64,000 nt of DNA from Patescibacteria group bacterium (GTDB taxonomy: Bacteria; Patescibacteriota; Minisyncoccia; 2-02-FULL-40-12; GWA2-44-9): contig JBBTTB010000006.1 of the NCBI GenBank assembly GCA_038064455.1, forward strand, positions 5,147 to 69,146, written 5' to 3'. The notes under the pieces were generated by a model that saw only the letters and a program-made list of their open reading frames with translations, made no database searches and had not been told where the DNA came from. The position numbers and the translations under genes are program-made. Of this stretch, positions 4,550 through 57,688 are shown piece after piece (the stretch's first letter is position 1; each line of letters opens with the position of its first letter).

Positions 4550-4847
4550 CCATACGTTAGTGTGTCGCCTGTGCCCTCGGTTCTACCCTCTCGCAGCCCG
4601 AACAGTAAGAGTTGCTCAATAACGTAAGGTGAGGGCGAGTAGGAGCGCGAGCATTCGCAGGATGCTCGACGCGTGGTAGAGAGAGGGCATAGGCAACGTG
4701 AGAGGCGGGTATTGAGTGGTATACACTCAATACGGCAGCTTTTCTCGTAGATTCTTGCATTTTATGGGCTTTTTTGTATACTTGTCCGTAAGCCGTAGAC
4801 AGCGGGCGTCCATAAGACCCGCCGAGGAAATACTCTTCAAAAGAGTC

Positions 4848-4875
4848 TGCGGCTGCGCGCAGGCTTTTTTAATTG
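4848..4875 (+). terminator. Candidate intrinsic terminator or attenuator hairpin (ctgcg..cgcag followed by TTTTTT) about 40 nt upstream of rplJ.
   Basis: GC stem followed by a T6 run. Confidence 0.4.
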
Positions 4876-4909
4876 GTCGAAGCGCGTAGCATAAACCGTA
4901 GTTTGTACC

Positions 4910-5581
4910 ATGAAAACACGAACACAGAAGGCAACAGAGCTTTCTCTCTTAAAAGAGAAGCTCCCGAAAGCAACGATTCGCATCTTCACCACGTTTGCAC
5001 GTGATGGGGAGAAAGGATTGTCGGTTGCAGAGATGCAGCAGCTCAAGCGCGCCCTTCGTAAGATCGGGGCAGAATTCCTGATCGCAAAGAAGAACTTGGT
5101 CGCTATCGCATCCAGCGACTTGCAATACGACGGCGTCGATGTCTTCAGCATGAATGGTTCCGTTGGAATCGCACTTGCGGAAGGTGATCAGTATGCCGCC
5201 GCTCGAGAAGTCTACAAGTTTGCTAAAGAGCACGAAGCACTCAAGCTCTACAGTGCATGGGGTGATGGCTACATTACACCAGAACTGCTCGCTGAAATGG
5301 CTACTATGCCGTCACGCGAAGAGTTGGTAGTACGTCTCTTGGGTATGCTCCAGTATCCGATCCGCTCGCTCGCGATGGTCTTGCAACAGATTGCTGACAA
5401 GCAACCTGCGGCACCTGCGCCCGTCACCGCCGAAGGCGGGACCCCGCAAAATGCGGTGGTAGCGGAACCGGTAGCGCCAGTTGTTGAAGAAGCCGCTCCT
5501 GCTCCGGATGTGTCAGCGGAAGCTCCCGCAGAAACACCGGCAGAAGCACCTGCAGTAAGCGAAACGCCTGCTGCTGAATAA
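4910..5581 (+). CDS. rplJ: 50S ribosomal protein L10.
   Basis: Typical L10 N-terminus (..LKEKLPKATIRIFTTFA.. GLSVAEMQQLKRALR). Ala/Pro/Glu-rich C-terminal tail. Confidence 0.9.
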   Translation: MKTRTQKATELSLLKEKLPKATIRIFTTFARDGEKGLSVAEMQQLKRALRKIGAEFLIAKKNLVAIASSDLQYDGVDVFSMNGSVGIALAEGDQYAAAREVYKFAKEHEALKLYSAWGDGYITPELLAEMATMPSREELVVRLLGMLQYPIRSLAMVLQQIADKQPAAPAPVTAEGGTPQNAVVAEPVAPVVEEAAPAPDVSAEAPAETPAEAPAVSETPAAE

Positions 5582-5587
5582 CCACGT

Positions 5588-5950
5588 ATGGACAAAGCAA
5601 CATTTATTGAACACATTGAAAAGATGAGTGTCAGCGAGCTCAATGAGCTCGTCAAGGGGCTCGAAGAGAAGTTCGGTGTCTCCGCCGCGGCATTTGCCAT
5701 GGCAGCACCAGCAGCGGGTGGCGCAGCAGCGGAAGAGAAGGATTCCTTCACCGTTGTACTCACCAACGCTGGCGAGCAGAAGATTCAGGTCATTAAGGTT
5801 CTCCGCGAATTGACCGGCCTCGGCCTCAAGGAAGTGAAGGACATGACCGACAATGTTCCTGCGACCGTCAAAGAGGAAGTAAAGAAAGCAGATGCAGAAG
5901 ACATGAAGAAGAAGTTGATGGATGCTGGCGCAACGGTTGACCTCAAGTAA
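5588..5950 (+). CDS. rplL: 50S ribosomal protein L7/L12.
   Basis: Canonical L7/L12: an Ala-rich hinge and the C-terminal domain ..[21 protein letters not shown]...AGATVDLK. Confidence 0.95.
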
Positions 5951-5972
5951 GCCACTACGCAGGTAGCATCAT

Positions 5973-5995
5973 AAAAGCCCCGTGAGGGGCTTTTA
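5973..5995 (+). terminator. Rho-independent terminator after rplL.
   Basis: GCCCC-GTGA-GGGGC hairpin followed by TTTT. Confidence 0.8.
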
Positions 5996-6118
5996 TGATA
6001 TGGGAGTGAGGACTTGTAAGAATGCTTTAGATATTGTATAATATAAATCTGTTCCTTAAGGTGAAAAACACTTCAATGGCAGAAAAACTGCCGTTGGCAT
6101 AGTGCTAAGGAATGGGTA

Positions 6119-6649
6119 GTGAGGTGCGACATGCGTTGGTTCAGTCTCTGTTGGCTTTTTGCGGTGTCCATCGCGCTCGGTGTGAGTGGCACTGGGATCG
6201 GTTTCATCTTGGGTTTCATGGGCTTGCCGGTTCTGCTCTGGCATCTGGCGGTGATGCATCAGGCCCAAGCCTACTGCGATCTCGTGACCTGCGCCACGCG
6301 CGAAATGCGCATGACGATGTTGGGCGAGTTGGCGCAGAAACTACACGACGCACACGAAGACAACGTCGAACTGCAGCTTCTGGCGTCGCGGCAATCGCTG
6401 ATGGAAGCAGAGAACACCATAGGCGATCCGGAGGCTCGTGCCAAGACGCTGCTGGAGTGGCGCAAGGAGAATGAGGCGCGACTGAAGAAGGAGCAGAAGC
6501 AAGTGGATCGGAAGATTCGCGAGGCGAAACAAGACTTCTGGCGCGCCGCGGGCGTCGTGCATGCGCAGCATGAGGGCCACGCGATGCCCAAGTCGTACAA
6601 GGAGCTGTTGCCGCCCAAGGACGCCGTGCCAGCGTACGACCCCGACTAA
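6119..6649 (+). CDS. Hypothetical GC-rich membrane protein with two N-terminal TM helices and a charged coiled-coil C-terminal half.
   Basis: ORF with its own AT-rich promoter-like box (ttgtataatat, about 6030-6050) and its own terminator. GC is visibly above that of its neighbours. No recognisable family. Confidence 0.4.
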   Translation: MRCDMRWFSLCWLFAVSIALGVSGTGIGFILGFMGLPVLLWHLAVMHQAQAYCDLVTCATREMRMTMLGELAQKLHDAHEDNVELQLLASRQSLMEAENTIGDPEARAKTLLEWRKENEARLKKEQKQVDRKIREAKQDFWRAAGVVHAQHEGHAMPKSYKELLPPKDAVPAYDPD

Positions 6650-6665
6650 GTCCCTACAACAGGGC

Positions 6666-6700
6666 AACGCCAGTGGAGAGCATCTCCACTGGCGTTTTCA
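6666..6700 (+). terminator. Rho-independent terminator.
   Basis: Perfect 14-bp stem aacgccagtggaga/tctccactggcgtt with a 3-nt loop, then TTTT. Confidence 0.85.
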
Positions 6701-6724
6701 TTTCTATACGCTGCTTTCTATTCC

Positions 6725-8659
6725 TTACTGCACCTGCCAGACTTTTTGATCTTCAGTGAGGTAGAAGAGCGAGCCGTTTGGATGCACTGTCGCGGTGACC
6801 ACCTCGTGCTCTTCAGGGAAGGTGATCGTCTTAAAGAGCGAGCCACTCTTCTTATCTACGAGGTAGAGACGATTGAGCGTTGTATCAAGAATGTAGACAT
6901 ACGGGAGGTCTACGCCAGTAAAGAGTTGTGATGCAGGGGATACAGGAAGGCCAGTGCTTACTTCTCCCGTGCGCTCGCCCTTGTAATAGGTGAGGAGGGT
7001 GCCCGTTGTGGTGACTGCGTAGATGTTCCCATCAATGGCGATATCTACGACATCTGCAGGAAGTGAAGCACTACTCTTGAGCCATGCACTTGCGGTGCCT
7101 TTGCCCTGCGCTGCTCCTGAAACGCGCATAATGGTGCTATTTGCAACGCCGTAGAGATTGTCTCCAAATTGTTCAAGATGCGCGAGGGCGGTGGAAAGGG
7201 TGATAGGGGTGACGCTCTGGCCCTTCACCGATGCGGCGTTGGTACCAGCAATAACCGTGTGAAGGGAATCGCTTCCCGTAAGCGCGGTTGCCTGTGCGGG
7301 AACGGTAACCGAGTCAGCAATAGCGGAGGTGCTAATGGCGTTTAATGTGCCGACGGTTTCGGTGGTGCGATACACATACAAGCCGTTCTGTGCAGCGATG
7401 TAGCTGATCTTTGCTTCTTCTTTGCTGTTATCAAATGCGAGTTGCGGTTCAGCGAGTTTTGCCTGATCAAGAGCATCGAGCTCCGCAAAAAGTTCAGAGC
7501 GTATTTCTTGTGCTGCGGTTGATGCGCTGTCTCCAGAGATAAATGGGTTGAGCGCGGCAAGTGATGCGCCCAAGAGGGTTCGTGCTTCCGGAATCTCATT
7601 TTGGTTTACTTTAGTTTTAGCGATCTTCATTTGATCGCGGACATCGGAGATGACTGTTGCGAGGGCTTCTTCTTCTGCGGAGGGCGTCACGAGGGATCGC
7701 ACAAAGAGGGTGCCACCAACGAGTGCGGCGATCATGACGACGAGGCCAATAGCGCGCGAGCGTGGGTTGAGGTCAGTGAGGCCAAGACGGCGGAAGAATG
7801 CCATGACGGGGTTCTTTTTTCGCCCCAACGAGAATTCGGAAGGAATGATGCGAGGAATGGTTTCTTCGCTTCCGAGCGATGTTGGTTGCGCGATGGGGGG
7901 CGTGTCGTGTTGAGGCGCCTGCGCAAAGCGGACTTGCTGTTGTTGTGGCTCTGGTACAAATGACGGTGCCGGCGCGGTGATTTCTCGGATCTTCTGCACG
8001 GTGATGTAGAGTGCGGCGCAGGAGAACGTATCTTTCTGTTCGCGAATAGCGGCAAGCTTTGCGATGAAGGCGTCTTTGTCGAGTTTGTCGAAATCACTCT
8101 TCACAAAGCGCTCTCGTGTGGTGAGCGAGCGATTGGGGAAGAGCGCAAGGAGGCGATCGTGTTCCTGCACTTTGCCGGAGATGATATTTGAGAATTGGCT
8201 GCCAGTGGCATCGGCATCTTTTTCGAAATGCTCTACATTGTTAAGTACATCAACAATGCCGCCCGTGCGCGCGAGGAACAGTTTAAACTTTCCGAGTTTG
8301 GAAATGAGGAGCGAGCCGTCAGCGATGGTGAAGATGCCCATGTTAATCTTTGCACCATTGTTTTCAAACAATTCGGAAACAACTTCGTTTACTTTGCGAA
8401 GCGTGTTTGAGAATGCATCTTTAATAGCAATGCCAGGGCGCGCGTAGTATTCACGCTTTGCAAGCGCGGCAATGAGGTTGAGCGCGTAGGCGAGATCATC
8501 AGTGGGGTGGCTGATGTTGCCGACCACGAAGAGATTACCCAACATGCGGGTGCTGTCTTGCTCGTCGGAGCTGTATGAGAATGCGTCCGCGGGTCCTTCA
8601 GGGTTCGCGCCAGAGATAGAGATTTCGTGGGCAATCGGCTTTAAAGTGATTTTTTCCAT
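6725..8659 (-). CDS. Single-pass membrane protein with an N-terminal cytoplasmic PP2C/SpoIIE-like domain (possibly a degenerate phosphatase) and a large C-terminal extracytoplasmic domain.
   Basis: N-terminal region has the pattern ..GNLFVVGNISHPTDDLAYALNLIAA.. / ..GIFTIADGSLLISKLGKFKLFLARTGG.., reminiscent of SpoIIE-type PP2C motifs but with Asp positions replaced. TM segment LVVMIAALVGGTLFV. Beta-rich C-terminus. Confidence 0.45.
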   Translation of the reverse strand: MEKITLKPIAHEISISGANPEGPADAFSYSSDEQDSTRMLGNLFVVGNISHPTDDLAYALNLIAALAKREYYARPGIAIKDAFSNTLRKVNEVVSELFENNGAKINMGIFTIADGSLLISKLGKFKLFLARTGGIVDVLNNVEHFEKDADATGSQFSNIISGKVQEHDRLLALFPNRSLTTRERFVKSDFDKLDKDAFIAKLAAIREQKDTFSCAALYITVQKIREITAPAPSFVPEPQQQQVRFAQAPQHDTPPIAQPTSLGSEETIPRIIPSEFSLGRKKNPVMAFFRRLGLTDLNPRSRAIGLVVMIAALVGGTLFVRSLVTPSAEEEALATVISDVRDQMKIAKTKVNQNEIPEARTLLGASLAALNPFISGDSASTAAQEIRSELFAELDALDQAKLAEPQLAFDNSKEEAKISYIAAQNGLYVYRTTETVGTLNAISTSAIADSVTVPAQATALTGSDSLHTVIAGTNAASVKGQSVTPITLSTALAHLEQFGDNLYGVANSTIMRVSGAAQGKGTASAWLKSSASLPADVVDIAIDGNIYAVTTTGTLLTYYKGERTGEVSTGLPVSPASQLFTGVDLPYVYILDTTLNRLYLVDKKSGSLFKTITFPEEHEVVTATVHPNGSLFYLTEDQKVWQVQ

Positions 8660-8753
8660 GGGGTTTACTTTTCGAGTCCTCTACGCTAGACTGCGCGGGA
8701 TATTTTCAGGGCGCAGAACGTACTACCTGCATTCTACTGAAACGTCTGACCAT

Positions 8754-8954
8754 ATGTCAAAGAGTGTTCTGGATAACCTGTTTGGTTCGCGTGCGCGAGT
8801 CAAAATCTTAAAATTTATTTTTCGGACACATCCGGAACAGTTTACGTTTCGCGATGTTGTTCAACGCACGCAAGAGTCAGAAGATATTGTAAAAAAGGAG
8901 CTTGCCGTCCTTGAAAGTATGCACTTAGTGCGTCGCATAAGCAACGGTTCATAA
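8754..8954 (+). CDS. Small winged-helix DNA-binding protein, 66 aa.
   Basis: ..FTFRDVVQRTQESEDIVKKELAVLESMHLVRRISNG is a helix-turn-helix-wing pattern. It sits directly upstream of the next gene, which it may regulate. Confidence 0.4.
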   Translation: MSKSVLDNLFGSRARVKILKFIFRTHPEQFTFRDVVQRTQESEDIVKKELAVLESMHLVRRISNGS

Positions 8955-8956
8955 GT

Positions 8957-9448
8957 ATGCCTCCAAAGAAACGAAATCGCACTGGGAAGCGGAAAAAGAA
9001 AGCACGCACGCCAAAACGTGTGGTGCGTCCGCGCGTGGTGATGCCCGGCCCAACCTATGTGGTGAATAAAGAATTCGCGTTCTTTAACGAACTGCATTCA
9101 CTTATTTTAAAACCATCTCCTGCAGAGCGCGGCGAGTTGATGCGCCGCATTGCGTCACTTGGTCGCGTGAAGCTCGCGGTTATCTCCGGAGTCTTTTTAA
9201 ATACACCAGATCAAACAGCGCTCATTGATACGAACGCACCAACCGACTTGTTTTTAGTAGCAGATGATTATAGTAAACAAAAACTCTCTGCATTTTTGAA
9301 AGCCCTTGAATCAGAAGTAGGCAAGGAAATAAAGTTTGGTATCATGGATAGGGAAGAGTTTATGTATCGTTTTGGCATGTTCGATCGCTTCGTGCGCGTG
9401 CTCCTTGAGGGGCCCCACGAGAAGTTGATTAACAAGCTTGGCATTTAG
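8957..9448 (+). CDS. Hypothetical protein with a strongly basic N-terminus (KKRNRTGKRKKKARTPKR) and a possible minimal nucleotidyltransferase-like core.
   Basis: ORF. Basic tail plus ..LAVISGVFLN..DLFLVADD.. (weak similarity to the NTase fold). Its stop overlaps the tRNA 5' end by 1 nt. Confidence 0.4.
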   Translation: MPPKKRNRTGKRKKKARTPKRVVRPRVVMPGPTYVVNKEFAFFNELHSLILKPSPAERGELMRRIASLGRVKLAVISGVFLNTPDQTALIDTNAPTDLFLVADDYSKQKLSAFLKALESEVGKEIKFGIMDREEFMYRFGMFDRFVRVLLEGPHEKLINKLGI

Positions 9449-9521
9449 GGCGCATAGCTCAGCTGGTTAGAGCGTTGCATTCACATTGCAAAGGTCCCTG
9501 GTTCGAGTCCAGGTGCGCCCA
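9448..9521 (+). tRNA. tRNA-Val (anticodon CAC).
   Basis: Folded by hand. Acceptor GGGCGCA/TGCGCCC. D-arm GCTCAGCTGGTTAGAGC. Anticodon stem TTGCA/TGCAA with loop TTCACAT. T-arm CCTGG-TTCGAGT-CCAGG. Discriminator A. No encoded CCA. Confidence 0.8.
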
Positions 9522-9962
9522 CTAAATAGGGCACGCGACAGCCGCTTCCGGTTGTTGCGTGCCCTGATTGCTGCATACGCGCCTGGCTCGAACGCCGGAG
9601 CGATGTGTTGCCAGCTGGCAACACCGCGAGGCGGTGGTCAGTTTACCCGCCCGCCAGTTAGGTGGGCGGGCCCGAGCCCCGACGACTGGTCGGGGCGAGA
9701 GGCGAGACCGAGTCCAGGTGCGCCCACTAAATAGGGCACGCGACAGCCGCTTCCGGTTGTTGCGTGCCCTGATTGCTGCATACGCGCCTGGCTCGAACGC
9801 CGGAGCGATGTGTTGCCAGCTGGCAACACCGCGAGGCGGTGGTCAGTTTACCCGCCCGCCAGTTAGGTGGGCGGGCCCGAGCCCCGACGACTGGTCGGGG
9901 CGAGAGGCGAGACCGAGTCCAGGTGCGCCCACTAAATAGGGCACGCGACAGCCGCTTCCGGT
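9504..9962 (+). repeat. Tandem direct repeat with a 205-bp period, 2.2 copies. Each unit begins with the last 18 nt of tRNA-Val (cgagtccaggtgcgccca).
   Basis: Copy 1 at 9504-9708 (shares the tRNA 3' end), copy 2 at 9709-9913, copy 3 partial at 9914 to about 9962. Copies 1 and 2 are essentially identical. Units are rich in hairpins. Confidence 0.85.
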
Positions 9963-9984
9963 TGCTGCATGCTCCGATTATTGT

Positions 9985-10013
9985 TTGACGTGCGTGAAAT
10001 AACGGCGTATACC
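9985..10013 (+). promoter_or_regulatory. Sigma70-like promoter of island gene A: TTGACG-N17-TATACC.
   Basis: -35 at 9985-9990 and -10 at 10008-10013. The module is conserved upstream of paralog B. Confidence 0.5.
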
Positions 10014-10102
10014 TATGCTGTTCGTTGCGTTCTTTCTCAACACAACATCGGCGGGCTCTACGGAGTTGACCGGTGGCTTAAAGGCTGTGGCTTTTAAGAA
10101 AT

Positions 10103-10864
10103 GTGGTACGACGATACCGCATAGGTGTTACGATGCCTCTCAAGCAAGAGATGCTGGAAGCTGCTCCCAGGGCCGCCTCGTGGCTCGCGGAGCGATGCCT
10201 CAACACGCTGTCTCCGACAGACCGAAGGGCGGTTTTCGATGACGTGGTGCAAGAGGCGATGAACCGTAGCGATGGCGACTCCGCGTCGGCCCTCTTAGAG
10301 CTCGAGCTTCGTTACTTGGATTCTGGCGCGCTCGATCGGGTACCCACGCCAGAGACCGTGGAGGAGCAGTGTTGGGTGCGCTACCTTCTCATCGAGCATC
10401 GCTTCTTGCGCGTGGTGGAGGCTAGGTGCCTGCGTCCCAGCAGTATGGAGCCATTTGCCAACTACAAGCTGTTCGTCTGCAAAGAGGTGGCAGAGTGCTG
10501 GACGCCGACGCTTCATGGGCCCCGTGAGTTGCGGGCTTTCCGCCTTTTGGCGGCAATGGGGTGGTGTGACTCGCCAGAATATCTCGAAGCTTTTTGGGAG
10601 CGCGTTGGCGCATCTATGCCACCGTGGGCGCGCGCGATGTACGCGACTACGAGGGCGGAACAGAATAAGTTCATCGCGATCCTCCGTGAGCGCCTGGATC
10701 GGTTTCCGCGAACCGAGCCGCAGGATCCCGAGGCCGCTTTCTTGTACTGGCTTTCCTTGCCACGTGTACCTGCCGACTTGAGACGCTTGCTCGCCATGGC
10801 GTATGCGAGGATAGTCGGCCCCGACGCGATCATGCGCGGTATGATGCAGCAGCCGCGTAGCTAA
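10103..10864 (+). CDS. Hypothetical protein, island paralog A (GC-rich).
   Basis: 253-aa ORF, with an alternative start at 10133. No known motif. Homologous to the next gene (..RAFRLLAAMGW.. / ..FLYWLSLPRVPADLRRLLAMA..). Confidence 0.5.
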   Translation: MVRRYRIGVTMPLKQEMLEAAPRAASWLAERCLNTLSPTDRRAVFDDVVQEAMNRSDGDSASALLELELRYLDSGALDRVPTPETVEEQCWVRYLLIEHRFLRVVEARCLRPSSMEPFANYKLFVCKEVAECWTPTLHGPRELRAFRLLAAMGWCDSPEYLEAFWERVGASMPPWARAMYATTRAEQNKFIAILRERLDRFPRTEPQDPEAAFLYWLSLPRVPADLRRLLAMAYARIVGPDAIMRGMMQQPRS

Positions 10865-10875
10865 AGCGCCAAACC

Positions 10876-10910
10876 AGCGGCCCCGGACCTGTCCCGAGGC
10901 CGCTTTTTTA
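10876..10910 (+). terminator. Rho-independent terminator after paralog A.
   Basis: gcggcc..ggccgc stem followed by TTTTTT. Confidence 0.7.
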
Positions 10911-10935
10911 TGTGCCTTTTATTCAACATATCTGA

Positions 10936-10964
10936 TTGACGCAAGTAAAATAATGGCGTATATC
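10936..10964 (+). promoter_or_regulatory. Sigma70-like promoter of island gene B: TTGACG-N17-TATATC.
   Basis: -35 at 10936-10941 and -10 at 10959-10964. About 60 bp is similar to the module upstream of paralog A, including a conserved gttgcgt just downstream. Confidence 0.5.
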
Positions 10965-11052
10965 TATAGCTATTTGTTGCGTCCCTTAACAACTTTCGCT
11001 GCTGGGCCCTTAGGGGCTGATCGGCGACTCGGAAGCTACGGCCGACGAGCCT

Positions 11053-12261
11053 GTGCGACACGACGTTGTCGCGTGGAGCACCACTATGGCGCTCAAGATC
11101 GAATTCTGGACATCGGCGGAGGAAATTCTCCGAATGTTGCCGTCAGTATCCGCAGCCATGGCCATGAAGTGGCTTGCGGCGCCCTCGGAAGATCAGGAAT
11201 CCTTCTTGGACGAAATCGTGATGACGGCCGCTCGGCGCTATGACGACGAGCAGACGTTTGCGCTCACCAACCTCATGTGTGCAGTGATCACTGAGCGGGA
11301 AGTTGCTGTCGCCAGAGACGGGACGGGCAACCGCTTCGAGAAGGAAAACGCTGCAAAGGCCGTCGCCGTTGAAAAGGCGCTGAAGTATCTCGACGATCTC
11401 TTCTGGCGCCTACCAGACTCTCGTGTTCAGCTCGACTATGAAACGCGCAAACCATACAACACGGCAGCGCTCACGGGAACGAAAGCGTTCATCTTCAAGC
11501 GTCTTCTGACGCAGTGGAAGTTGGCGGTGCCATCCGAGGTAAGCATCCGTGCGTTTCGTCGCGCGATCGCCATGGGGTGGCCACTCCCCGCGGAGACGAA
11601 GACCCTGCCTGGCGAAAGCGACATCGAACTGAAGGTTCGTGGGCGTTGGGTATCGGCAGATGAGCGCAAGCAGTATCTGACCACCCTACGCGAATGTCTG
11701 GGGGGTTTGACGTCGGATGACCCGGATAGCCTGTTCTCCCACTGGTTCTCACTCCAGGCGGTTCCCTCTGACATCCGGGACCTGCTTGCCATCGCGCGGA
11801 CGAGGCTGGGTGGCCACCACCTGGCATCGCGTGACGTGGTGCGTGCGGGGATGCTCAACGGCTTGCCGCAGTCGGGGGTAGAGGTGGTCGCCGCCTTGGC
11901 TGTTCGTATGCGCCTGGCCGTGGAGGGGTTGACGCGTGTCAAGGAGCTCATCGCCAAGAGTATCCCAGCACCCCACATCCACCAGAGCTACTTCCAACGA
12001 GAGAGAATCATCGCAGAAGGAGTCGAGCGTGCGGTTAAGTACGCTTTCAATTTCTCTCCCGAAACCGTGACGCTGCAAATGACTGTCATGGTGCCGGACG
12101 AGATGTACGGTTCCAACATGTACTACCCCACCGTCGACGCCATCGAGAAGGTACAGTGTAAGGGCAATCTCCTCGACATCGCAATCATGCTGCGCTTTTA
12201 CGATCCGAACGCTCGCGATCGTATCGTGAAGGAGTGCAGCATCGAGGCGGCCCCGCGCTAG
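11053..12261 (+). CDS. Hypothetical protein, island paralog B (GC-rich).
   Basis: 402-aa ORF, with an alternative start at 11086. The central and C-terminal region is homologous to paralog A (..RAFRRAIAMGW.., ..FSHWFSLQAVPSDIRDLLAIA..). Weak hairpin terminator at about 12262-12305. Confidence 0.5.
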   Translation: MRHDVVAWSTTMALKIEFWTSAEEILRMLPSVSAAMAMKWLAAPSEDQESFLDEIVMTAARRYDDEQTFALTNLMCAVITEREVAVARDGTGNRFEKENAAKAVAVEKALKYLDDLFWRLPDSRVQLDYETRKPYNTAALTGTKAFIFKRLLTQWKLAVPSEVSIRAFRRAIAMGWPLPAETKTLPGESDIELKVRGRWVSADERKQYLTTLRECLGGLTSDDPDSLFSHWFSLQAVPSDIRDLLAIARTRLGGHHLASRDVVRAGMLNGLPQSGVEVVAALAVRMRLAVEGLTRVKELIAKSIPAPHIHQSYFQRERIIAEGVERAVKYAFNFSPETVTLQMTVMVPDEMYGSNMYYPTVDAIEKVQCKGNLLDIAIMLRFYDPNARDRIVKECSIEAAPR

Positions 12262-12446
12262 CGGGCAACCCCGACGGTCTCGAGAAGCAATTCTCGGGGC
12301 CGTTTTCTTATCAATTTACTCTTTTCGATGCATGGTGCGAGTGAAATGCTCGCGCAAAGTCCCCAGCTCGGCTGGTGGGGCTCCTGCACACCCCGCGACC
12401 ATTCGTTGTTCACGAAGATCGTGGGGTGTTTTACTTATGCACATTT

Positions 12447-12480
12447 CCGCTGTTGCGCGCATGCTCGGTGGGGTATACTG
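12447..12480 (+). promoter_or_regulatory. Candidate promoter of the mraZ operon: TTGCGC ... TATACT.
   Basis: ttgcgcgcatgctcggtggggtatactgac about 45 nt upstream of mraZ. Confidence 0.35.
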
Positions 12481-12525
12481 ACTAGGTAGTGGTTGTAAGT
12501 GGGAAGAAGTGTTACATCGCAAACC

Positions 12526-57049: not shown

Positions 57050-57688
57050 TTATCGTGAATAATATTCAATAATTGCCTGCAAATCATCAACTTTCAAACC
57101 ACTGGCATCCATCTTCGGAATGGTGGTTACCGTTGCGGTCATTGTCTGCTTATCAAGCACCATCCATGCCGGAGCTTCATAGTTTGCAAGCCACTGCGGC
57201 ATAAGACTCCCCATGAACACATTCTTCTTGCTGCCTTCGCGGATACCAAGGACGTCGCCTTGCGAGACGCGGAATGAGGGGATGTTAACTTTGCGGCCAT
57301 TCACCGTAATGTGGCCGTGGCTTACGAGCTGACGTGCTTGGTCGCGAGATTGAGCGAAACCCATGCGGAAGACAGAGTTGTCTAGACGCGTTTCAAGTGC
57401 GGCGATCATTGCGTCATATGGATCTGTCTTTTCAGTAAGGGCGCGCTGGATGATGCTCTTAAACTGCTTTTCCATGAGACGATACGTCTTACGCACCTTC
57501 TGCTTCGAACGAAGCTGGAGGCCGAACTCTGAAACCTTTCCAAAGTTACCTGTTTTCCCGTGTACACCAGGTGGGTATGGACGACGCACCATCGCTGATT
57601 TCTGCGAGTGAGAACGCTCACCTTTCAAGGCAAGCTTTTCTCCTAAGCGACGCTCAATTTTCTCTCGTGGTCCAAGATATCGTGCCAT
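57050..57688 (-). CDS. rpsD: 30S ribosomal protein S4.
   Basis: MARYLGPREKIERRLGEKL... S4 domain. Confidence 0.9.
   Translation of the reverse strand: MARYLGPREKIERRLGEKLALKGERSHSQKSAMVRRPYPPGVHGKTGNFGKVSEFGLQLRSKQKVRKTYRLMEKQFKSIIQRALTEKTDPYDAMIAALETRLDNSVFRMGFAQSRDQARQLVSHGHITVNGRKVNIPSFRVSQGDVLGIREGSKKNVFMGSLMPQWLANYEAPAWMVLDKQTMTATVTTIPKMDASGLKVDDLQAIIEYYSR

Follow-up and report, generated by a model that had tools for sequence, protein, structure and literature searches.

A 205-bp hairpin-dense tandem repeat that begins inside a patescibacterial tRNA-Val gene, probably an att-type insertion scar

A 205-bp tandem repeat in a patescibacterial chromosome was found to begin inside an intact tRNA-Val(CAC) gene and to repeat the 3' end of this tRNA downstream, with GC-rich, hairpin-rich, non-coding DNA between the repeated ends. 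With somewhat better than even confidence, the array is explained as a set of att-type direct repeats that arose by a site-specific, integrase-type insertion at tRNA-Val(CAC) and were amplified later. The layout can be read, as a slightly better than even choice, as attL, filler, att, filler and attR. The att reading is favoured because the tRNA is intact, direct copies of its 3' end start from the T-loop, the repeated block is sharply bounded, and the foreign DNA behind it is absent from relatives. A preliminary description of the window (the whole 64-kb stretch of DNA that was analysed) had offered a recombination-site array as one possibility. That idea came near the best reading, but the period is set by three copies of the tRNA 3' end and not by arm-type sites.

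Only one array was reported by TRF, at 9504-9979, with a period of 205, 2.3 copies, 98% matches and a score of 924. A repeat search showed that the 205-nt units at 9504-9708 and 9709-9913 are 100% identical to each other. The tandem repeat of 205 bp that had been noticed at first sight is therefore real, with its end moved from 9962 to 9979. Three 66-nt copies are contained in the array, the third of which, at 9914-9979, is 94% identical. Each copy opens with a 51-nt identity block without a single mismatch across all three, and past this block copy 3 carries 4 mismatches in 15 nt (9965, 9969, 9973 and 9975), after which similarity fades. The hypergeometric probability, calculated by hand, that all 4 mismatches fall in the last 15 of the 66 positions is C(15,4)/C(66,4) = 0.0019. 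So sharp a boundary of the 51-nt block (p ~0.0019) argues for an att core in diverged arms rather than uniform drift after a plain duplication.

The repeat starts at 9504, the third base of the T-loop, a point that was missed on first reading, and the part of the identity block that lies within the tRNA runs from this base through the base after the discriminator. A start in the T-loop is one of the canonical att sublocations, which are the anticodon loop, the T-loop and the 3' end. There are three occurrences of the tRNA 3' 18-mer GAGTCCAGGTGCGCCCAC, where chance would give 0.04, and exact tRNA 3' fragments in direct orientation are located downstream at 9709-9727 and 9914-9932. At the junction between the units, the filler end GGCGAGAC is followed immediately by the tRNA end CGAGTCCAGG. 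The interval between direct repeats measures 186 bp and contains neither an integrase nor any other gene. The tRNA gene itself abuts the upstream ORF 8957-9448 adjacent to its stop codon, and it is 100% identical to the tRNA-Val of the closest relative, L001. Coordinates of the features are collected in Table 1.

Table 1. Features of the tRNA-Val(CAC) region and of the segment downstream of it (window coordinates)
Feature	Position	Strand	Description
Intact tRNA-Val(CAC)	9448-9522	+	ARAGORN; Rfam tRNA 71.5 bits; T-loop 9502-9508
Identity block, copy 1	9504-9554	+	last 19 nt of tRNA and 32 nt of trailer; attL-like core
Strain-specific segment	9523-12315		array, ORF A and ORF B; 58% GC; 2.8 kb
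Hairpin 1, tRNA trailer	9528-9565	+	17-18 bp; loop CUUC; two G.U pairs; -34.1 kcal/mol; z -7.1
Filler X, copy 1	9570-9708	+	139 nt; 70.5% GC vs 51.3% for the window
Inverted tRNA-like segment CGCGCCTGGCTCGAAC	9578-9593	+	imperfect inverted copy of tRNA 3' part, 15/17
Hairpin 2, long, imperfect	9593-9636	+	-26.4 kcal/mol; z -3.1; palindrome 9605-9624 at tip
Hairpin 3, CCCGCCCGCC/GGTGGGCGGG	9646-9670	+	10 bp; one G.U pair; -23.1 kcal/mol; z -4.4
Hairpin 4, GCCCCGAC/GTCGGGGC	9676-9696	+	8 bp, perfect; no T-run after
Second unit	9709-9913	+	tRNA 3' fragment 9709-9727; trailer hairpin 9733-9770; filler X 9775-9913
Third, partial copy	9914-9979	+	identity block 9914-9964, then 4 mismatches; attR-like
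Promoter-like TTGACG-N17-TATACC	9985-10013	+	ahead of ORF A; homologous copy ahead of ORF B
ORF A	10133-10864		in strain-specific segment, right of array
ORF B	11086-12261		in strain-specific segment, right of array

The third copy is probably the native host copy, and thus attR-like, as judged from its sequence: it continues into ATTATTGTTTGAC, which it has in common with the tRNA trailer of L001. In L001 a hairpin with the same CUUC loop stands at the same offset past the tRNA (-25.8 kcal/mol) and is followed by ATTGTTGTTTGAC. The trailer hairpin of copy 3 has a stability of -18.5 kcal/mol (z -2.1), all four of its mismatches weakening the stem, and copies 1 and 2 carry a stronger trailer hairpin joined to foreign DNA. 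In the proposed course of events, recombination within the 51-nt identity block would have regenerated an intact tRNA on the attL side, while the native tRNA 3' fragment would have been pushed downstream to the attR side, where it would now be seen at 9914-9979 with its decayed hairpin. The foreign DNA between the att copies, about 155 bp of 70% GC, hairpin-rich and non-coding, with no recombinase, may be a deletion remnant or a miniature att-only element. The second identical unit could then have come from unequal recombination, slippage or re-integration between identical blocks. Possibly, the hairpins of the filler are terminators, or protein or recombination sites, of a lost element. Integration of this type predicts an attP in which the core lies between GGCGAGAC and TAAATAGGGCACG, and excision would be expected to leave an empty-site junction in which CCCTGGTT is joined to CGAGTCC...CGGTTG and this in turn to CTGCATGCTCC.

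Relatives were compared in a set of 80 mraW-anchored loci obtained by a MraW-anchored search. In the closest one, L001, MraW is 97% identical and the flanking DNA about 89-91% identical. By blastn, L001 is collinear with the window up to 9523 (L001 8719), the exact tRNA end, and again from 12316 (L001 9350). In place of the strain-specific segment between these points L001 has an unrelated 630 bp, and it is without the unit. Two other relatives (L003 and L016) have a nearly identical tRNA-Val with a terminator and mraZ immediately behind it, which is an empty site. Furthermore, a second copy of the tRNA end was found in 0 of 14 relatives with a syntenic tRNA-Val, and the unit had no blastn similarity in the fetched loci. 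A covariance model of hairpins 2-4 (R1) gave no credible match in 54 patescibacterial loci totalling 0.86 Mb; the best foreign match (L014, E about 0.09) was in a coding region, at its end. The gap between tRNA-Val and mraW in the relatives ranges from 578 to 3932 bp, varying without att repeats. The window is core chromosome of a Paceibacteria / Yanofskybacteria-like genome, and its genes include mraZ, mraW, PBP, Mur ligase, DnaB, CysS, DnaK, GltX, MreB and RpoA.

The same variability lends some weight to a local rearrangement without any mobile element or integrase. The tRNA end and its trailer would then have been doubled by replication slippage or by unequal crossing-over, and the conserved tRNA would have been the anchor for illegitimate or homology-facilitated recombination that brought in the GC-rich filler. 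The window contains no recombinase gene, the interval between tRNA-Val and mraZ varies in many relatives without att repeats, units that are 100% identical are what a recent duplication would give, and dense hairpins promote slippage. Against this, the boundary of the duplication must have hit the T-loop, a canonical att sublocation, by chance; a sharp 51-nt block followed by divergence (p about 0.002) is not uniform drift; 2.3 copies require at least two separate events; and the filler is compositionally foreign. A purely local origin is thus considered unlikely.

The att reading is weakened, in turn, in that the 64 kb contain no integrase: a Pfam search of 39 large ORFs found no integrase or recombinase domain. 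ORF A and ORF B were considered for the role of the missing recombinase and rejected, as neither belongs to a Pfam, PHROG or NCBIfam family, and the predicted structure of ORF B (pLDDT 89) has no recombinase-like or other fold match in the PDB. A right-hand att copy was also sought where the variable segment ends on its far side (about 12316), and this possibility was rejected because none was found. The att reading is weakened, too, by the stretch that carries ORF A and ORF B: it likewise differs from L001, falls beyond the att-bounded interval and has no repeat at its right edge, so that the break in homology at the tRNA cannot be credited to the units alone. Further points that weaken the att reading are that the identity block extends 32 nt beyond the tRNA end, that 205 bp is far under the size of any described integrative element, and that such a hairpin density is atypical of attP.

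As for the two ORFs themselves, they are orphan paralogues, of which ORF A matches itself only. Each is preceded by a leader of some 135 nt, and in the consensus fold of the two leaders 7 of the 36 pairs are maintained by double changes. The family of ORF B counts 46 representatives in 1.84 billion proteins, and its homologues in other Patescibacteria are encoded beside dnaB or immediately upstream of dnaE. The ORF B family may merit separate study.

The number of units is taken from the source assembly alone, and "at least two" is the best statement of it; the dependence of the two identical copies on this assembly also weakens the att reading. Logan unitigs of the same strain (ERR3858121, ERR3858120) break at both edges of the array, one corresponding to window 4650-9484 and another beginning at 9935, 30 nt before the point at which copy 3 diverges. 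Such a stop at 9484 and restart at 9935, together with the exact identity of the two units, could speak for an artefact of the assembly in the tandem arrangement or the copy number, in which a 205-bp loop of the graph stands for one integrated unit plus excised circles, or for strain variants placed in series. However, the collinearity of both flanks with L001 shows that the contig is not a chimera, and the copy-3 junction was assembled independently in a Logan unitig (L084). Since all k-mers of a contig have to be present in the reads, the junction at 9700-9775, made up of filler end, tRNA end and a tail of the copy-1 type, would also imply at least two copies of the tRNA end per molecule if the final k exceeded 53. 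An artefact is accordingly held to be highly improbable.

The exceptional hairpin density that first drew attention to the repeat is confirmed: all the hairpins listed in the preliminary description are present in the unit, and the + strand of one unit folds with an MFE of -130.1 kcal/mol (z -9.5 vs 200 shuffles). The - strand reaches -115.6 kcal/mol (z -6.5 vs 200 shuffles). DNA palindromes alone would give the same stability in a single-sequence fold. The stem formerly given as AGGGCACGC...GCGTGCCCT belongs to a longer one of 17 bp, 9528-9544 / 9549-9565, with two G.T pairs. The perfect 20-bp palindrome GTGTTGCCAGCTGGCAACAC occurs at 9605-9624 and at 9810-9829, with 0 expected by chance. Written as RNA, hairpin 3 reads CCCGCCCGCC-AGUUA-GGUGGGCGGG and hairpin 4 reads GCCCCGAC-GACUG-GUCGGGGC. 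The inverted tRNA-like segment at 9578-9593 matches the tRNA 3' part with a score that is equalled in only 8 of 1000 shuffles, and in the MFE structure it is predicted to pair with the next copy of the tRNA end, closing a multi-branch fold. The segment GGCTCGAAC (9585-9593), described earlier as T-arm-like, did not stand up as a direct match to the tRNA, since 708 of 2000 shuffles are as good; its interpretation as a decayed direct copy of the tRNA was rejected on account of this chance-level match. No terminator-like site was found within 9523-9979, and a T-rich stretch, ATTATTGTTTG, follows copy 3 only. The idea that the hairpins are a set of intrinsic terminators was rejected, as they are GC-rich but without a T-run in 9523-9979.

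Such folding raises the question whether the 3' trailer of tRNA-Val carries a structured RNA with a function, co-transcribed with the tRNA. The units would fold into multi-branched structures closed by 9578-9589 and the next copy of the tRNA end; this closure would resemble an acceptor/T-stem minihelix whose CCA-like tail is free, so that hairpin RNAs could be cut out by tRNA-processing enzymes. Consistent with this, the + strand fold (-130.1, z -9.5) is stronger than that of the - strand (-115.6, z -6.5), the stem pairs that are not Watson-Crick are G.U on the tRNA-sense strand in 3 of 3 cases, read-through is plausible since nothing terminator-like stands between the tRNA and the array, and chance is an unlikely source of the inverted tRNA-like segment by which the fold is closed (8/1000 shuffles). 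On the other side, palindromes in DNA yield an equal single-sequence stability, three G.U pairs out of three have a probability of only about 0.125, and the tRNA fragment at the start of each unit is left unexplained. Rfam likewise gives no match at E<=10, and neither in L001 nor in the 54 patescibacterial loci was the unit found by blastn or covariance model (best E 0.09), leaving no homologues to support covariation. As to compensatory changes in relatives, no homologue of the unit was found, and the two copies in the window are identical. A functional trailer RNA is therefore regarded as quite unlikely.

The Rfam result has a defined scope. Rfam 15 at E<=10 over 9000-10500 returned the tRNA only, and at the gathering threshold the whole window yielded two tRNAs and nothing else; a known RNA family was rejected on this basis. 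The "novel structured RNA" of the preliminary description is not supported, with neither an Rfam match at E<=10 nor a relative that has the unit. In fact, no conservation of the unit in any relative was found, as far as the collections allow, which is the outcome that the description itself had named as speaking against its proposal. What remains in favour of a structured RNA, namely single-sequence stability and a G.U bias on the + strand, is weak.

The array does not code for protein. The ORFs over it had been judged not credible as coding, and rightly so: 205 equals 3n+1, and a search of 5.8 billion proteins gave no relative of the 123-aa ORF that spans the repeats. The exclusion of a CRISPR array also holds, as the "spacers" are identical and no cas genes are present, cas domains having been found in none of the 39 large ORFs of the window. 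Integron attC, CRISPR, group II intron, retron and ribozyme were all dropped for want of a defining feature or an Rfam match. There are no dispersed copies of the unit elsewhere in the 64-kb window or in 92 loci. A blastn search of phage and plasmid collections with the unit gave 0 matches. Six exact patterns from the unit gave 0 matches in viral contigs, a search of limited sensitivity, being confined to exact patterns. A metagenome scan with the 20-bp palindrome gave one unrelated 22-bp chance match (L081). That the filler was not found in the phage, plasmid, viral and metagenome searches, so that there is no donor and no evidence of mobility, further weakens the att reading.

A more far-reaching version can be formulated, in which the unit would be a live miniature "att-only" element made of the 51-nt core and about 155 nt of hairpins, excising as a mini-circle and re-integrating in tandem by means of an integrase supplied from another part of the genome or by a phage of Patescibacteria. 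In addition or instead, the hairpins might be released as small RNAs from the trailer of tRNA-Val by tRNA-processing enzymes acting at the closing helix that resembles an acceptor/T-stem. This version is very unlikely. If true, mobility of a 205-bp att-only element, or the processing of RNAs out of a tRNA trailer, would be new in kind; the unit would represent the smallest described tRNA-targeting integrative module, and an ultra-small bacterium would have a tRNA-linked RNA of a new type.

If the favoured reading of an att-type scar is true, the scientific gain is modest. It would make tRNA-Val(CAC) a target of site-specific integration in a lineage of Patescibacteria, and the gap between tRNA-Val and mraZ a hot spot of gene flux. 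To our knowledge, few integrative elements are known in Patescibacteria. Where hairpin-dense repeats are met beside tRNA genes, duplicated tRNA ends should be checked for before new RNAs are proposed.

Among known systems, the REP/BIME and MITE repeats are, like the array, short, GC-rich, hairpin-forming, non-coding and intergenic. Unlike them, the array has no dispersed copies in the 64 kb or in relatives, and a pattern of terminal inverted repeats with a short target duplication was not established. Small RNAs derived from the 3' external transcribed spacer of tRNAs, such as 3'ETS-leuZ in E. coli, resemble the array in being a structured segment directly 3' of a tRNA, on the same strand and with no terminator between. 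The known 3'ETS sRNAs are single, not tandem, and have no tRNA fragments, whereas the array is tandem, has tRNA fragments inside and shows no conservation; a role as an sRNA would thus be putative.

A closer likeness is found in islands of the Islander type. A regenerated tRNA gene with a displaced fragment is the signature that is used for mapping islands (PMC4383910), and T-loop att sublocations as well as direct repeats of 15-221 bp have been described (10.1101/2020.11.02.365908). Like these islands, the array has a tRNA that is intact and whose 3' end is copied in direct orientation, a start in the T-loop and a foreign insert that is absent from relatives. However, Islander requires an integrase, and the 186-bp interval of the array holds neither integrase nor gene; moreover, the array repeat runs 32 nt past the tRNA, and it has no known donor.

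Remnants that are flanked by att sites and lack an integrase (CIMEs), and their accretion, have been documented (PMC5704250), and tandem accretion is documented at tRNA and tmRNA genes (PMC5704250, PMC3146451). In the ssrA islands of Dehalococcoides, serial att copies occur at one target, with insertion midway through the T-loop (PMC3146451), and att-flanked prophages occur in Patescibacteria (10.1101/2024.03.08.584096). The CIMEs and tandem accretions of the ICESt1 family and of Dehalococcoides ssrA share with the array the flanking att sites, the lack of genes for recombination and transfer, and the serial att copies. The described CIMEs and islands span kilobases, carry cargo and differ between tandem members, whereas the units of the array are identical, 205 bp long and non-coding. 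Judged by its structure, the array would fit the definition of a CIME, with excision as a putative property. In conclusion, the array is most probably an att-repeat scar at a tRNA gene, unusual in its size, its hairpin content and the phylum of its host.

The interval downstream of tRNA-Val(CAC), at window 9523-12480, is a variable hot spot in Paceibacteria-like genomes. Across the window and the relatives' loci L001-L018, found by the mraW-anchored search, tRNA-Val(CAC) and mraW lie between 578 bp (L003) and 3932 bp (L014) apart, and the gene content in between is unrelated. In L011, from a Yanofskybacteria MAG of 42% GC, there is likewise, just after tRNA-Val, a hairpin-forming stretch of anomalously high GC content (8196-8300), and a scaffold gap comes next; no sequence similarity was found between this stretch and the 205-bp repeat unit of the window.

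The orphan paralogues that occupy the interval in the window, ORF A and ORF B, belong to a patescibacterial protein family with 46 representatives among 1.84 billion proteins, which found no match in Pfam, PHROG or NCBIfam. The AlphaFold model of ORF B is confident (pLDDT 89, pTM 0.79), and its comparison with the PDB returned no fold match at E<=0.001. Elsewhere in the Patescibacteria, homologues of ORF B adjoin dnaB in divergent orientation or overlap dnaE, lying directly upstream of it. The patescibacterial locus L085, which shows synteny with the 18.5-28 kb region of the window, carries a gene of this family between dnaB and cysS, a place at which the window has none; the cassette thus shifts location between genomes.

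Members of the ORF A/ORF B family and the elements ahead of them

Feature	Locus	Position	Remark
ORF A	window	10133-10864	family member
ORF B	window	11086-12261	family member
ORF B homologue	L085	6001-7176	family member
ORF B homologue	L088	6001-7143	family member
ORF B homologue	L091	5792-6994	family member
Promoter-like site	window	9985-10013	TTGACG-N17-TATAyC, ahead of ORF A
Promoter-like site	window	about 10928-10956	TTGACG-N17-TATAyC, ahead of ORF B
Leader of ORF A	window	9996-10135	~135 nt
Leader of ORF B	window	10953-11088	~135 nt

The promoter-like sites and leaders of the two genes are homologous to one another, and the motifs TGTTCGTTG and CTCTACGG recur in the leader of the 32%-identical homologue in L085. 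An RNAalifold consensus built from only the two leader sequences contains 36 pairs, seven of which are preserved by changes on both sides. The leader is a candidate cis-regulatory RNA.

Two further features of the window lie outside this interval. ORF 8-928, which has no Pfam match, contains within 689-906 a direct repeat of 98 nt (94% identity, spacing 120) together with a 24-nt tandem repeat, and this tract, going by the sequence of the repeat, appears to be rich in codons for Pro and Thr. The tRNA-Ser(GGA) predicted by ARAGORN at 57489-57577 (-) is probably a false positive, since it falls within ORF 57050-57688 (-), which resembles ribosomal protein S4, and Rfam gave no tRNA support there.

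Just past the far end of the interval, three direct AGTGG-type repeats with 10-bp spacing lie at window 12488-12513, just 5' of the mraZ ATG (12527). Such repeats are also kept ahead of mraZ in L001, the closest relative, and those of the window resemble MraZ binding sites and are putative operator boxes of that protein.
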